From positions 32,001-96,000 of the IMG/VR virus record IMGVR_UViG_3300006880_000001: a stretch of 64,000 nt of DNA. One strand, given 5' to 3'. The notes beneath the pieces are model-generated. The model was given only the letters and a program-made list of their open reading frames with translations. It had not been told where the DNA came from and ran no database searches. How positions within the stretch are numbered: the stretch's first letter is position 1; each line of letters starts with the position of its first letter. Below, piece after piece: positions 71-55,907 of this stretch. A program made the translations under genes and the position numbers. The DNA comes from a virus.

Positions 71-403
71 ATGCTGCCCAAGCCGTTGCGGTCCGGCGCC
101 AAGCTCCACCTCTCCAACCGCTTCCGCGCCACCCTTCTGAAGGCTGTCGACGTAGCGTTTGCCATGGCGCTCGTTGACGATCCCACGCTCGAGAGGTTGC
201 GCGCCCAGGTCACCAACCGACTTGGAGCGCGGTTACCGCTCACGGAGCGTCAGACGACACGTACGGCCCGCGTGCTGCTTGAGGCCATGTTGATCACTTT
301 CTCCACGCACCTCGATGCAAAGGACCGGGCGGAGATGGAATCCTTCCTGGAGATGATCGAGGCGAAGAATGCGCAGGTTGCCAAGCGGAAGAGGCGCCGC
401 TAG
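71..403 (+). CDS. hypothetical protein, basic C-terminus
   Basis: 110-aa ORF ending KRKRRR, preceded by a GCCAC...GTGATAC variant of the class A promoter. Confidence 0.6.
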   Translation: MLPKPLRSGAKLHLSNRFRATLLKAVDVAFAMALVDDPTLERLRAQVTNRLGARLPLTERQTTRTARVLLEAMLITFSTHLDAKDRAEMESFLEMIEAKNAQVAKRKRRR

Positions 404-442
404 ACGATCCGTAGGTCACAGCGCCGTGATACGGTTCGCGGC

Positions 443-607
443 ATGATCCTGCCCTACGTTCCCGTCCTCGTCATGGTCGCTGGTCTCTTGCTGTACCTGC
501 TGAGCAGCAACGCGAAGGCGCAGGAGCTCGGCCGGATCCTGTTCTTCGTCGGTCTGTTCTTCACGGTCGGTGTCATCGGCGGTGCGAAGGTCCTGACCCT
601 CAAGTAG
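443..607 (+). CDS. small two-helix membrane protein (54 aa, not in ORF track)
   Basis: Hand translation MILPYVPVLVMVAGLLLYLLSSNAKAQELGRILFFVGLFFTVGVIGGAKVLTLK*; GTCAC at 415 and TACGGT at 430 upstream. Confidence 0.75.
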   Translation: MILPYVPVLVMVAGLLLYLLSSNAKAQELGRILFFVGLFFTVGVIGGAKVLTLK

Positions 608-634
608 TTCACCGACGGTGATCGATCACGGCCC

Positions 635-663
635 TTGACACGCCTACATGGTGTCGCTAGGTT
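635..663 (+). promoter_or_regulatory. sigma70-type promoter
   Basis: TTGACA (635-640), 17 nt, TAGGTT (658-663); same hexamers and spacing at 55448-55476. Confidence 0.8.
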
Positions 664-670
664 CGGTGGC

Positions 671-1025
671 ATGTCCCATTGACCGTCAGCCGCCCGCGGC
701 CACGTCACTCGCCCACTACGTCGTCATCCGCGCTGACCTCCCCCTCGGGTTGAAGGTCGCCAACACAGTCCACGCAGCTGGGCTATCCGCCTCCTGGCGA
801 GACGGTCCGCTGCCCACCGACACCATCGCCGTGGCTCTCGCCGCGCGTGATGAGAGCCACCTCCACGAGCTCTCCGTGAAGCTCGCGGAGCGCAACATCC
901 TCCACCACCCTGTCCGTGAGTCCGACGGACCCTACGCGGGGCAGTGGATGGCCATCGGCCTCGAGCCGACCGCCGACCGCGACGCGGTCAGAAAGGTGGT
1001 CTCGCACCTACCGCTCGTGCGGTGA
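671..1025 (+). CDS. peptidyl-tRNA hydrolase, PTH2-like; start probably ATG671 with +1 frameshift (track start 648)
   Basis: YVVIRADL..GLKVANTVHAA...AIGLEP...HLPL pattern of PTH2 family; adjacent to tRNA-like genes. Confidence 0.75.
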
Positions 1026-1033
1026 ACGTTCCT

Positions 1034-1108
1034 GGGGTCGTGGTGTACGCACGCACGCGCCGTCCTCGCGCCGGCGAAGACCTGGCCTGCCGCCAGGCGA
1101 CCCCACCA
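1034..1108 (+). tRNA. atypical tRNA-like RNA, 9-nt anticodon loop, degenerate D and T loops
   Basis: Acceptor GGGGTCG/CGACCCC + ACCA; D stem GTGT/GCAC; anticodon stem CGCCG/CGGCG with loop TCCTCGCGC; T stem CCTGG/CCAGG with loop CCTGCCG. Confidence 0.7.
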
Positions 1109-1109
1109 A

Positions 1110-1186
1110 GCGCGCTTAGCTCAGCAGCAGAGCACCGAGCGTAATGGACTCGGGTGTCGGGGGTGCGACTCCCTCAGCGCGCGCCA
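1110..1186 (+). tRNA. atypical tRNA-like RNA, 9-nt anticodon loop CGTAATGGA
   Basis: Acceptor GCGCGCT/AGCGCGC + GCCA; D stem GCTC/GAGC; anticodon stem CCGAG/CTCGG; T loop TGCGACT. Confidence 0.8.
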
Positions 1187-1218
1187 GCTGTCACCCTGTT
1201 GTGGTAACGATGCGGGGT

Positions 1219-1470
1219 ATGAGCGATCGATCCAGCGCCGACATCTTCGCGACGATGTTCCTGCTGCTCGACTCGGACAAGACCAAGGAGCAGATCGCCC
1301 AGGAGCTGTGGAAGAAGACATTCGAGTTTGACTTCTCATGCCAGCAGCTCGAGATCGACGACACGTTGGTGCGGTTTGGCCTCGCCAGAAAGGTGAAGCG
1401 CCCCGACTACCCCGACGAGACCATCACCCAGTACCGGCGCGCGGACGGTCGGCGCTGGGATGATCCGTAG
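1219..1470 (+). CDS. hypothetical protein
   Basis: ORF from MSDRSSADIF; class A motif GTCAC at 1190. Confidence 0.65.
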   Translation: MSDRSSADIFATMFLLLDSDKTKEQIAQELWKKTFEFDFSCQQLEIDDTLVRFGLARKVKRPDYPDETITQYRRADGRRWDDP

Positions 1471-1471
1471 G

Positions 1472-2404
1472 TCACCAGGACCCGATCGCGACCTTCGCCC
1501 GCTCGACGTAGGAGGTGATCCAGGCCGCCTCCTCGGGGAAGTAGATGGCCGGGACGTCGAAGCACCACCAGGGTCTCTCGCCGGGGTAGAAGCGGCAGGG
1601 GATGAAGTCGATCGGCGCCGACGGCGGGTCCCCACGGCCAGGGATCCAGCCATCCGCGAGGAGCAGGAGCCCCCGGTGCATGTGCTCGTGGGGCGTTAGC
1701 TGTGGAGCGTCGATGGGGTCGACCAGGTAGAGATCTCCCTGCCGCCAGACCCCCGTCGAGACCTCCTCCACGACACCCTGGGCGCGGGGATGGGCGAGGA
1801 AGGCATACGACCCGATCGTTTCGTCGAGGTCGGTGTAGTTGGTCCGGGAGGGCAGGTACGGCGCGATCGTGTCGACCAGGGCGTCGTGGGGGATTCCGTA
1901 GTTGAGGGGGAGCATGTAGCGCCAGATCTCGGCGGTGGCCCCCGAGTAGCACATCGGGAACCGGACCTCACCGGGGCGCATGACCGCCGGCGGCCTTGGT
2001 GGCACGGGCGCCGCGGGCTGCATCCAGATGTCCCCGAGGCCGCGGTAGACGATGAAGTCCTCGCGGCGATCGAAGAAGGTCCGCGACAGGGGGATCATGT
2101 CCACGTCGGAGGTCAGGAGGAAGTCCTCGGGGTCGAGGAAGGGCTCGCAAGCGGCGACCAGCCGCGCACAGCGCATCGTGTTGGCGATGCCGAGCGGGGC
2201 CACCGCGTCGATGATGCTGGTGGTGGAACCCGCGAGCGCGAGCTCGGCGCGCACGAGATCGCCGAACGGCGTGTCCCAGCCCTCGGCGTGGAGGTACACC
2301 AACGCCTTGTAGCCGAGACGGCGCCACAGGCGGACGACCAGGGGGAGGTAGATGGCGTAGGTGGGGGCAGCGTCGCAGGCGAGGACGATGTAGCGTTGCT
2401 TCAT
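1472..2404 (-). CDS. putative glycosyltransferase (DxD)
   Basis: Start MKQRYIVLACD overlapping upstream stop; LLTSDVDMIPL motif; last gene of GT/MT operon. Confidence 0.6.
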   Translation of the reverse strand: MKQRYIVLACDAAPTYAIYLPLVVRLWRRLGYKALVYLHAEGWDTPFGDLVRAELALAGSTTSIIDAVAPLGIANTMRCARLVAACEPFLDPEDFLLTSDVDMIPLSRTFFDRREDFIVYRGLGDIWMQPAAPVPPRPPAVMRPGEVRFPMCYSGATAEIWRYMLPLNYGIPHDALVDTIAPYLPSRTNYTDLDETIGSYAFLAHPRAQGVVEEVSTGVWRQGDLYLVDPIDAPQLTPHEHMHRGLLLLADGWIPGRGDPPSAPIDFIPCRFYPGERPWWCFDVPAIYFPEEAAWITSYVERAKVAIGSW

Positions 2405-3012: not shown

Positions 3013-3854
3013 GCGTCGGGCCCGAAGGGGAGGATGGTGACGAACCCGAAGGGCTCGATCTCGTCTGGGGGCCACGCCGCGCGTTCGAGGCCCGAGAGAC
3101 GCTCGGTGAGCGCCATGTCGGTCTGCACCACCTTCTGCAGCTGCGGCGCGTAGGTGGCGCCGTCCGCGGCGATGCGATACCACGCGTCCGGGCGGTACCA
3201 GTACGTCGGGATCTGGTCGGTGTGGGTGGCCCCCGCGGCGACCCGGGCGCCATCGACCGAGAGGCCGCGCCAGACGAACTCCGTGAAGCGCGCGGCACGG
3301 ACGTTGAACAGCCAGTCCTCCATGTTGCGGAGGCCGGGGTCGACGAAGTTGCCGAAGCGCGCCTTCACCTTGGCGAGCACCGACGTCTTCATGGCGATGT
3401 TCGCCCACGAGGCGCAGAACGAACCGGCGAGGAGCTCCTGGCGCGCGGGCCGTGGGTAGTTGCCAGCGCCGGCGACGTTGCCCTCGTTCTCGTAGGGACC
3501 GAAGCAGGCGTCGGCGAAGCGTAGGGCGATGCGGTCCAGCGCGAGCTTCTCGGGCTCGAACCAGTCATCGGAGCCGAGGCGGACCCAGTAGGTCCCCTCC
3601 GCGACGGCGAGCTCCATGCCGATCTCGTTCATCGCGACGCCGCCGCGGTTGTCGTCGAAGCGGCGGTAGCGGATGCGCGGGTCGATCGTGTATGGGTGCA
3701 CGACGGCTTCGGTGTTGTCGATGGAGCCGTCGTCGAGGATGTACAGCCGCCAGTCGCGGTCGGTCTGCGCGCGCACCGACTCGATGGCCTGGGGCAGCGT
3801 CTTGGCCCGGTTGTAGGTGGGCAGGATGACGACGAAACGACCTTCCTTGTGCAT
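3009..3854 (-). CDS. glycosyltransferase family 2
   Basis: VILPTYNRA..L..AIESV.AQT...ILDDGS.DNT and SDD motifs. Confidence 0.92.
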   Translation of the reverse strand: MHKEGRFVVILPTYNRAKTLPQAIESVRAQTDRDWRLYILDDGSIDNTEAVVHPYTIDPRIRYRRFDDNRGGVAMNEIGMELAVAEGTYWVRLGSDDWFEPEKLALDRIALRFADACFGPYENEGNVAGAGNYPRPARQELLAGSFCASWANIAMKTSVLAKVKARFGNFVDPGLRNMEDWLFNVRAARFTEFVWRGLSVDGARVAAGATHTDQIPTYWYRPDAWYRIAADGATYAPQLQKVVQTDMALTERLSGLERAAWPPDEIEPFGFVTILPFGPDA

Positions 3855-9412: not shown

Positions 9413-9428
9413 GATCGAAGGTGCGATC
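9413..9428. promoter_or_regulatory. class B palindromic motif GATCG-N6-CGATC
   Basis: GATCGAAGGTGCGATC; on minus strand followed by TACGCT and ATG9393. Confidence 0.8.
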
Positions 9429-15281: not shown

Positions 15282-15297
15282 GATCGAAGGTACGATC
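15282..15297. promoter_or_regulatory. class B motif, bidirectional
   Basis: GATCGAAGGTACGATC flanked by TACCAT-ATG (minus) and TAGTCT-ATG (plus). Confidence 0.85.
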
Positions 15298-34097: not shown

Positions 34098-34113
34098 GAT
34101 CGCACCTTCGATC
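34098..34113. promoter_or_regulatory. class B motif between divergent structural operons
   Basis: GATCGCACCTTCGATC; TGGTAGAGT-N6-ATG34132. Confidence 0.85.
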
Positions 34114-40233: not shown

Positions 40234-40249
40234 GATCGAAGGTGCGATC
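40234..40249. promoter_or_regulatory. class B motif
   Basis: GATCGAAGGTGCGATC; TACCGT-N6-ATG on minus strand. Confidence 0.8.
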
Positions 40250-55509: not shown

Positions 55510-55640
55510 GGAAGGGTAAGGGGACCGGGTCCCCGCCAACTGCTAAATTGGTCCACCCCGACAACGCCTCTCGCTGGCCTCGGCTAGCACACGGCAGCTG
55601 TCTACAAGAACGGTCGGTTCGACTCCGACACCCTTCCCCA
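55510..55640 (+). ncRNA. tRNA-like RNA with large variable-arm insert; G-1:C73, 8-nt anticodon loop CTGCTAAA
   Basis: GGAAGGGT/ACCCTTCC + CCA; D stem GGGGAC/GTCCCC; GCCAA/TTGGT; T arm GTCGG-TTCGACT-CCGAC. Confidence 0.75.
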
Positions 55641-55670: not shown

Positions 55671-55803
55671 CGGGGGGACGTCGCCTGGTGGCGACACTTT
55701 CATATGACGAAAGCAATCCCGACAACGCCTCTCGCTGGCCTTGGCTAGCACATGGCGCCTGTCTACAAGGAAGCCGTGACAGGTTCGATTCCTGTACCCC
55801 CGA
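55671..55803 (+). ncRNA. tRNA-like RNA with the same insert; anticodon ATG, 6-bp D stem
   Basis: CGGGGG/CCCCCG; GTCGCC-TGGT-GGCGAC; CTTTC-ATATGAC-GAAAG; ACAGG-TTCGATT-CCTGT; no encoded CCA. Confidence 0.75.
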
Positions 55804-55832: not shown

Positions 55833-55907
55833 CGCGAAGATGCTCATTGGTCGAGCATCGGCCTTAAGAGCCGACAGGAGTCGGTTCAAATCCGACCTAC
55901 GCACCCA
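55833..55907 (+). tRNA. tRNA with TAA anticodon, short variable loop, C1xA72 mismatch
   Basis: GCTC/GAGC D stem; TCGGC-CTTAAGA-GCCGA; GTCGG-TTCAAAT-CCGAC; CCA. Confidence 0.8.

Follow-up and report, generated by a model that had tools for sequence, protein, structure and literature searches.

The DNA analyzed here, called the window below, is a stretch of 64,000 nucleotides corresponding to bases 32001–96000 of one 129,359-bp record with a G+C content of 67% (IMG/VR virus record IMGVR_UViG_3300006880_000001). Near its beginning lie a gene for a protein with the peptidyl-tRNA hydrolase 2 (Pth2) fold, a mini-open reading frame (mini-ORF) of three sense codons in front of this gene, and a tRNA gene with an enlarged anticodon loop behind it. 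In a comparison of about a hundred related loci, the last four bases before the shift into the Pth2 frame vary in step with the loop of the tRNA, a pattern indicative of a natural four-base codon switch. The features of the module are as follows.

635–640, + strand: -35-like hexamer TTGACA, read from the sequence; part of the only promoter-ATG match in the window
648–668, + strand: in-frame alternative starts ATG648, GTG651 and GTG666, the rival initiation route
658–663, + strand: -10-like hexamer TAGGTT, 17 nt after TTGACA and ending 7 nt before ATG671
671–682, + strand: leaderless mini-ORF ATG TCC CAT TGA, Met-Ser-His-stop in triplets
677–680, + strand: proposed four-base codon CAUU, the last U of which is the first base of the stop UGA; C follows
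681–1025, + strand: Pth2-fold coding region, reached by a +1 step; 114 codons plus stop
1110–1186, + strand: tRNA gene with encoded CCA end (ARAGORN, 77 nt; Rfam RF00005)
1140–1148, + strand: anticodon loop CGUAAUGGA, with the four-base anticodon AAUG at 1143–1146 (Infernal alignment)

An earlier note on this DNA had described a -10 hexamer ending at 663 with ATG671 7 nt downstream, the string ATG TCC CAT TGA C with the Pth2 frame continuing in +1 from GAC681, and two in-frame starts, ATG648 in the promoter spacer and GTG666 2 nt past the -10; all this can be read directly in the sequence and the coordinates hold. The strict pattern TTGAC-N17-19-TANNNT-N5-8-ATG occurs only once in the 64 kb, at the Pth site, and in none of 100 shuffles. 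The note's view that leaderless spacing is used throughout the window was also borne out: among 175 first-start ORFs, TANNNT hexamers peak 6–7 nt before the starts (13 of the 23 found at gaps of 0–20 nt), and this spacing is a habit of the window's genome. The 125-codon ORF at 648–1025 is intact, in the +1 frame relative to ATG671, with GAC at 681. Since ATG648 and GTG651 fall between the two promoter hexamers and only 2 nt separate GTG666 from the -10, all three would be absent from an mRNA starting near 670. When CATT is read as a single step, one open product of 117 residues is obtained. A search of the + strand between the Pth2-like gene and the tRNA gene revealed nothing resembling a terminator, which would suit their putative co-transcription.

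The tRNA gene at 1110–1186 scored 45.4 bits with Rfam RF00005, the gathering score being 29 (E-value 3e-08, full model 1–71). In the Infernal alignment, a 5-bp stem CCGAG/CUCGG encloses the 9-nt loop CGUAAUGGA, which has two extra bases; this register assumes that the D and anticodon stems are one base apart, as is normal, and that the variable loop has 5 nt. AAUG at 1143–1146 is the exact complement of CAUU at 677–680, and the description of this gene in the earlier note was thus confirmed. The name given by ARAGORN, Ile(aat), is compatible with a 7-nt loop only via a C.A mismatch together with a lengthened D/anticodon junction and variable loop. The gene does not conform to the canonical elongator pattern (7-nt loop, U33 and three-base anticodon), and it does show what is expected of a quadruplet-decoding tRNA, that is, an enlarged loop with four bases complementary to the shift site. 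It also has a discriminator G, G3-C70, an A at position -1 and a short variable loop.

As regards the protein, the note's assignment to the peptidyl-tRNA hydrolases holds for the fold, whereas the Pfam PTH2 family (PF01981) was matched with 20.3 bits, below the cut-off of 23 (E-value 6.7e-4, profile positions 49–114 only). The AlphaFold2 model built from a 25-sequence alignment has a mean predicted local distance difference test score (pLDDT) of 89.7, and Foldseek ranks 1–12 are all Pth2-family structures, with E-values from 1.3e-6 to 1.9e-4 and template modelling (TM) scores of 0.64–0.76; the top matches include 3erj, 1q7s, 2zv3, 1wn2 and 1xty. The family profile aligned full-length with the Pth2 chains of the PDB at an E-value of about 1e-3, and some homologs carry a precomputed PF01981 match. 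In the profile alignment, the family-invariant Glu91 falls opposite the Asp of the R-D-A-G motif in 2zv3, and a hydrophobic residue occupies the position of the lysine of the G-K motif; the Asp of the D-A-G motif and the Lys of the G-K motif are those which we take to be the catalytic residues of archaeal Pth2. To judge from the model, the product is clearly a Pth2-fold protein, the hydrolase activity of which is putative. In the 125-residue reading, residues 1–20 are modelled with a pLDDT of 56–59 and the domain begins at residue 21, with the strand HYVVIR. The residues added by starts at ATG648, GTG651 or GTG666 are not conserved among the homologs, and the apparent N-terminal motif C-x-I-D-x-Q-P of the latter is the nucleotide motif ATG...CATTGAC translated in the wrong frame.

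In the 129-kb genome, recoding-like frames were seen at no CATT site other than that of the Pth leader; control 4-mers gave 0–7 candidates. Since it is the sole such site, and since CAU-U is not specially avoided elsewhere, the tRNA looks dedicated to a single leader site. The PHROGs matches, which comprise tail spikes and a Dda-like helicase, mark the genome as that of a phage, and its DNA is present in rhizosphere metagenome runs. A DNA search of cultured phages with window positions 400–1500 gave no match, nor did a tblastn search with the 942-aa ORF, and the source is therefore to be regarded as a large phage of soil without a close relative in culture.

Covariation of the leader quadruplet and the tRNA loop

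Homologs were collected by protein search, followed by retrieval of the DNA of 80 IMG/VR loci. An anchor was present in 81 loci; removal of redundancy left 68, and 60 of these have a scored neighbouring tRNA (the other eight are L002, L003, L005, L009, L017, L033, L064 and L074). The 4-mer tested was the ARAGORN anticodon plus the next base, without any choosing among tRNAs. In 42 of the 68 loci, the stretch from the upstream stop to the conserved strand HY-x-x-x-R-x-D lacks any in-frame ATG, GTG or TTG. Within the open stretch preceding the domain, the complement of the tRNA 4-mer lies in the leader frame in 72 cases and in the other two frames in 5 and 5 cases. An ATG-led leader quadruplet complements the 4-mer of the neighbouring tRNA in 53 of the 60 loci, which fall into 18 codon/anticodon classes. 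The largest class, CAUU/AAUG, comprises 23 non-redundant loci including the window; GCUU/AAGC is present in six, and CCUU/AAGG and GAGC/GCUC in three each. Two loci each belong to CCAU/AUGG, CUAG/CUAG, CAUC/GAUG, CUAC/GUAG and CUAU/AUAG, and single loci to GAAU/AUUC, GUAG/CUAC, CGAG/CUCG, GAUU/AAUC, CCAA/UUGG, CCAC/GUGG, AUGC/GCAU, GUAU/AUAC and CCGU/ACGG.

The fourth codon base takes part in this covariation: all four Watson-Crick pairings occur between it and the 5' base of the anticodon, and changes at this base on the same triplet (CUA-U/C/G, CCA-U/C/A and CAU-U/C) are each accompanied by the matching anticodon base. Wrong pairings between class representatives match in only 12 out of 306 cases; this off-diagonal rate alone was used, a permutation of the classes being circular as the representatives were drawn from matched loci. 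On a tree of the Pth domain, based on about 100 residues and a quick search, the class changed at least 21 times, the minimum being 16 for 17 classes, versus 28–30 times in the first 10 of 200 shuffles. Among the 62 matched tRNAs of the related loci, 35 have 9-nt loops of the form N-N-U-[4 bases]-R-N, the outer bases of which are mostly C..A or A..C. This outer pair may be the ordinary 32-38 pair, kept while one extra base was accommodated 5' of U33 and one in the anticodon.

The leaders of the 53 matched loci are ATG-led, have 2–13 sense codons and are one base behind the Pth frame, which usually has a stop overlapping the leader ATG and no start codon of its own. The short ORF with the gene in +1, which the earlier note expected to be conserved, is thus conserved in these loci. 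A promoter pattern precedes the leader in 21 of the 53 loci, with a gap of 6 nt (13 loci) or 7 nt (6 loci) between the -10-like hexamer and the ATG, and a Shine-Dalgarno-like word was found in only 11. The matched site ends on the first base of the stop in 30 loci and is internal in 23; the stops at the terminal sites are TGA (20), TAA (5) and TAG (5), and C follows the stop in 28 of the 30. With internal sites this frequent and all three stops in use, the switch sensing release factor 2 (RF2) that the note had put forward does not hold as a general explanation. The Pth gene is followed, and sometimes preceded, by tRNAs with odd anticodon loops. The stop TGA closing the Pth frame often lies inside the ATGA of the leader, and leader peptides of different codon classes begin alike, with Met-(Asn/Thr)-Ser-Ser, which suggests that the first leader codons may be constrained beyond the four-base word.

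The seven misses among the 60 loci are L031, L063, the L042 group, L051, L052, L056 and L057. Those of L031 and L063 are due to the ARAGORN register, AAGC being present in the loop and GCT T in the leader, while ordinary or distant in-frame starts occur in the L042 group, L051, L052 and L056. Homologs with an ordinary start, which the earlier note had held to speak against its reading, do exist (the L042 group, L051, L056 and L017), as exceptions forming a minority.

A second, independent set consisted of 45 loci from bacterial assemblies, many of which are binned as Myxococcota, and the cultured Myxococcus phage Mx1. Five of the 46 loci have no anchor and 41 were evaluated for in-frame starts, which are lacking before the conserved strand (ATG, GTG or TTG) in 25. 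The complement of the tRNA 4-mer was found 39 times in the leader frame, and once and twice in the other frames. Matches were obtained in 26 of the 33 loci with a scored tRNA, of which L113 is doubtful as its "leader" runs through a tRNA gene, and three classes were added: GCAU/AUGC, CGUU/AACG and CCUA/UAGG. The covariation between codon and tRNA loop which the earlier note had asked to be looked for is therefore present in both sets. Four of the seven misses (L087–L089 and L091) have matching leaders more than 130 nt upstream. In these four loci and in L005, the Pth frame is open for 73–103 codons through the cognate odd tRNA gene before the domain is reached; their leaders start with GTG or ATG and end with GCT TGA C or CAT TGA C. 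Since the tRNA gene is inside the ORF in this arrangement, excising the tRNA would sever the mRNA that needs it.

Phage Mx1 (locus L081, GenBank OR576727.2) carries the CAUU/AAUG module at 2485–2505, 2555–2815 and 3254–3328. Its leader is Shine-Dalgarno-led, contains two CAT T words and is one base behind the Pth frame, and about 440 nt downstream there is an unannotated tRNA with the 9-nt loop AGUAAUGAC. The Pth coding sequence in GenBank starts at an internal ATG, which removes the conserved first strand; this late start is what is to be expected if no proper in-frame start exists. A TROVE/Ro60-like gene is located just upstream of the module (L081 111–1760).

Mechanism and alternative explanations

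On the strength of these comparisons, the locus is likely to be a recoding module of two parts, a leaderless mini-ORF with a quadruplet and a dedicated tRNA that decodes it and thereby gates a Pth2-like gene. The host-type promoter would give rise to a leaderless mRNA beginning at or next to AUG671. Read in triplets, the mini-ORF would yield Met-Ser-His and terminate at UGA (680–682), and no Pth2-like protein would be made. At the third codon, the phage tRNA (1110–1186), presumably charged, would take four bases, AAUG pairing with CAUU, insert its amino acid and allow the ribosome to resume at GAC681, giving the 117-residue Pth2-fold protein, which might then hydrolyze peptidyl-tRNA or aminoacyl-tRNA. 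The yield would be set by the competition between the odd tRNA and the host tRNA for the rare codon CAU. The triplets at the sites mostly end in A or U and are presumably rare in high-G+C hosts, which would help the odd tRNA to compete. A stop followed by C is a weak termination context, and at terminal sites UGA-C would probably contribute too, but with 23 of the 53 sites internal, competition with release factors cannot explain everything.

As to the purpose of the gate, our guess is a feed-forward or threshold switch tying the hydrolase to a working odd tRNA. A more specific idea, which we regard as rather unlikely, is that the module is a "hungry-codon" sensor in a tRNA conflict, turning on the Pth2-type hydrolase by a frame shift of the odd tRNA once a host tRNA has been cleaved or depleted. 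The mini-ORF would set a codon rare in the host directly before a stop, plentiful host tRNA keeping the gene off; a host anticodon nuclease or some other depletion would empty the A site, the odd loop presumably being no substrate for the nuclease, and the hydrolase would free peptides from broken or stalled tRNAs. If this were true, each of the roughly 20 codon classes would reflect the tRNA under attack in the host concerned, and the variant with the tRNA inside the ORF (L087–L091) would add a choice between tRNA processing and translation.

Several points weigh against quadruplet decoding as just outlined. In the window, ATG648, GTG651 and GTG666 are in frame with the domain, unlike the situation in most relatives, and no terminator-like site was found between the upstream gene (443–607) and these starts at 648–666, so that a read-through transcript could allow ordinary initiation. 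The 62 matched tRNAs are so diverse in their acceptor stems and discriminators that they fit no single identity set, and they show no G-1/C73 and mostly no G3:U70, which makes their charging putative; in the tRNA of the window, the elbow is unusual, with the T-loop UGCGACU and a D-loop without GG. In-frame CAU-U is not avoided in the genome, where it accounts for 8 of 142 CAT codons versus 16 of 429 for GAT-T, as counted in 166 ORFs chosen by GC content at third codon positions (GC3) from crude gene calls; either the decoding is inefficient outside the leader context or a low level of it is tolerated. The L042 group, L051, L052 and L056 have an ordinary in-frame start and no leader, and tRNAs with GAUG or AAUG loops still adjoin them. 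The fact that ordinary-start homologs keep odd tRNAs suggests that these tRNAs may serve for more than opening the Pth gene and that they and the enzyme may be connected in some further way. Lastly, the wording "four bases read at once" may be too literal, as most suppressor tRNAs with enlarged loops form just three pairs at a time (PMC5009743).

The intact 125-codon ORF at 648–1025 and the lack of a terminator-like site between the upstream gene and 648 would suit ordinary initiation at ATG648, GTG651 or GTG666 on a longer transcript, with the CATT/AAUG pair as a remnant or a minor route, and a few homologs do have plain in-frame starts. The window has, nevertheless, a single strong promoter match, and the three starts either fall within it or follow its -10 by 2 nt; no GGAGG-like word precedes any of them, and the residues that they would add are unconserved, are modelled with the low pLDDT given above and owe their apparent C-x-I-D motif to leader nucleotides in the wrong frame; 42 of the 68 relatives have no such start at all, and we find this explanation improbable. 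The pairing of four bases might also be dispensed with while the +1 shift is kept, the odd tRNA acting as a reader of the triplet CAU whose bulky loop makes the ribosome advance by four bases, or a host tRNA slipping during slow release at UGA-C. In laboratory suppressors such as SufB2, the four-base move has been proposed to take place at translocation. The position of 30 of the 53 sites on a stop, followed by C in 28 of them, would suit such a shift, and most frameshift-suppressor tRNAs pair no more than three loop bases at once according to the part of PMC5009743 dealing with them. A pure triplet reader would have no need for a fourth base that covaries in all four Watson-Crick combinations, however, and slippage of a host tRNA cannot explain why the neighbouring tRNA tracks the site; moving from CAU to AUU gives the His tRNA no re-pairing, the leaderless mRNA offers no Shine-Dalgarno stimulator and 23 of the 53 sites are internal rather than at a stop. 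A shift of this kind is quite improbable in our view.

The tRNA-shaped RNA might also act by pairing rather than decoding, its loop binding the start of the mRNA in the manner of a T-box specifier or an antisense RNA and controlling ribosome access or stability, with the protein translated from a non-canonical start. The pairing of an anticodon with a leader is the principle of T-box riboswitches, and no more than 10 nt separate the site from the presumed 5' end. Pairing alone predicts neither the frame preferences of 72/5/5 and 39/1/2 nor a main ORF always exactly in +1; the Pth-frame codons at the site vary with the class (ATT, CTT, AAT, CGT or TAT) and provide no consistent near-cognate start, and the locus shows no T-box-like structure, for which the space would not suffice either. 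This makes an RNA-RNA regulator highly improbable. Also rejected were a non-canonical ATT start at 678, where the codon is CTT, AAT, CGT or TAT in other classes; a T-box-like element; and both a sequencing error and a pseudogene, as the layout is conserved.

Other tRNA-like and promoter-like elements

ARAGORN finds two tRNAs in the whole genome, that at 1110–1186 and another at window positions 55833–55907, which has a UAA anticodon in the loop CUUAAGA. As a long variable arm is lacking and the acceptor stem is imperfect, the latter does not qualify as a standard bacterial Leu tRNA. A tRNA-shaped repeat of about 128 nt is present in two copies, at 55510–55637 and 55672–55801; their acceptor, D and T arms fit a tRNA model, about 73 nt replace the anticodon arm, and they score 30.9 and 27.8 bits with Rfam tRNA-Sec, less than its gathering score of 47. 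The stretch at 1035–1108, which separates the Pth stop from the tRNA gene, is cloverleaf-like: CCA comes after an acceptor-like stem of 7 bp, and one hairpin resembles a T arm. A second tRNA at 1034–1109 was not confirmed: the fold is no better than that of shuffles (z -1.28), a 96-nt search found no Rfam tRNA there even at E-values up to 10, and ARAGORN gave none at 70% thresholds. Beside many of the modules of the related loci, there are tRNA-shaped genes with a 6-nt "anticodon loop" CGAAAG or CUUCGG (L051 3484–3556, L062 2311–2386, L069 3324–3394, L075 3358–3428, L042 3300–3379 and L077 3313–3386, for example); these loops are GNRA- or UUCG-type tetraloops closed by C-G and hold no usable anticodon.

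The 16-nt near-palindrome GATCG-N-A-NN-T-N-CGATC occurs at 12 sites in the window versus 0.33 expected (9413–9428, 15282–15297, 34098–34113 and 40234–40249, among others), and several copies are situated just upstream of a TANNNT hexamer 6–7 nt before an ATG. It looks like a phage-specific class of promoter or operator, distinct from the TTGACA promoter of the Pth module.

Significance and comparison with known systems

A tRNA and a four-base target which stand side by side and change together many times are about the strongest comparative evidence for function. The proposal in the earlier note of a natural quadruplet-decoding switch at a viral Pth gene is supported by this comparison of sequences, which provides strong evidence for a natural, conserved four-base codon/tRNA pair that would gate a Pth2-like gene. 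No published description of a module combining a four-base codon, a tRNA and a Pth gene was found in the openly readable articles, taken without their supplementary files. If it is confirmed, quadruplet codons serve cells and phages as a regulated switch, a new link is established between phage tRNAs and peptidyl-tRNA hydrolysis, and about 20 naturally optimized quadruplet tRNA/codon pairs, mostly with 9-nt loops, become available for genetic code expansion. The module also explains why, as in Mx1, annotations repeatedly give Pth genes a truncated start or none and overlook the tRNAs. Since Mx1 and its host Myxococcus can be cultured, the idea is directly testable.

A known programmed +1 frameshift is that of prfB, the RF2 gene, at CUU UGA C. 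The site in the window resembles it in that a short upstream frame ends with NNU UGA C and the product lies in +1, continuing with GAC, and in that C follows the stop, giving the weak termination context seen at 28 of the 30 terminal sites of the related loci. It differs in that CAU UGA C offers no slippery CUU-U re-pairing and has no internal Shine-Dalgarno stimulator. Neither the slippery CUU U nor the stimulator 3 nt upstream that characterize prfB-type sites is present, and there is no room for a stimulator because the presumed mRNA starts 6 nt upstream of CAU UGA C. The mRNA is leaderless, and the upstream frame has only 2–13 codons in the Pth loci, where the shift tracks a dedicated trans-acting tRNA and the stop may also be UAA or UAG, or be absent, as at the internal sites. 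Because no release factor is encoded, the feedback logic of RF2 does not apply. Phage-encoded suppressor tRNAs, for their part, read triplet stop codons across many late phage genes. Here too a phage tRNA would alter the reading of phage mRNA, possibly as a switch for particular genes, but it would do so at a four-base word, at one site in one gene.

The protein has the same fold and length as the archaeal and eukaryotic PTH2 proteins (3erj, 2zv3, 1xty and Bit1 1q7s), and the blocks R-x-D-L ... A-Q-x-x-H-A and G-x-x-M-A-I-G-x-x-P align across the whole domain. It differs from them in its marginal sequence similarity, in having Glu at the Asp of R-D-A-G and in not keeping the lysine of G-K. In phage lambda, the bar minigenes are mini-ORFs of 2–3 codons tied to peptidyl-tRNA drop-off and to the need for Pth, and they poison Pth-deficient hosts; the mini-ORF described here, unlike them, leads into a Pth-like gene. 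Jumbo phages are on record as carrying PTH2 genes (PMC7824862), as are the tRNA arrays of cluster C mycobacteriophages (PMC5966550), and the Pth2-like gene of the window likewise adjoins a tRNA gene. The passages of these two articles that deal with PTH2 make no mention of a missing start, a leader or odd tRNAs.

The tRNA itself resembles the laboratory suppressors sufD, sufA6/SufB2 and sufJ and the engineered quadruplet-decoding tRNAs (DeBenedictis et al., PMC9094753, PMC8481270), which have 8–9-nt loops with four complementary bases and a +1 outcome. In the parts of the literature bearing on the matter, quadruplet decoding is treated as belonging to laboratory suppressors (PMC5009743; PMC9094753), and natural four-base decoding is only suspected, in a few mitochondria (PMC5009743). 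Whereas those tRNAs are mutants or designs which correct engineered sites, the phage tRNA is a natural and conserved gene located beside its own natural target, with which it appears to have co-evolved through about 20 codon classes, and its usual 9-nt loop has one extra base 5' of the conserved U in addition to the extra anticodon base.

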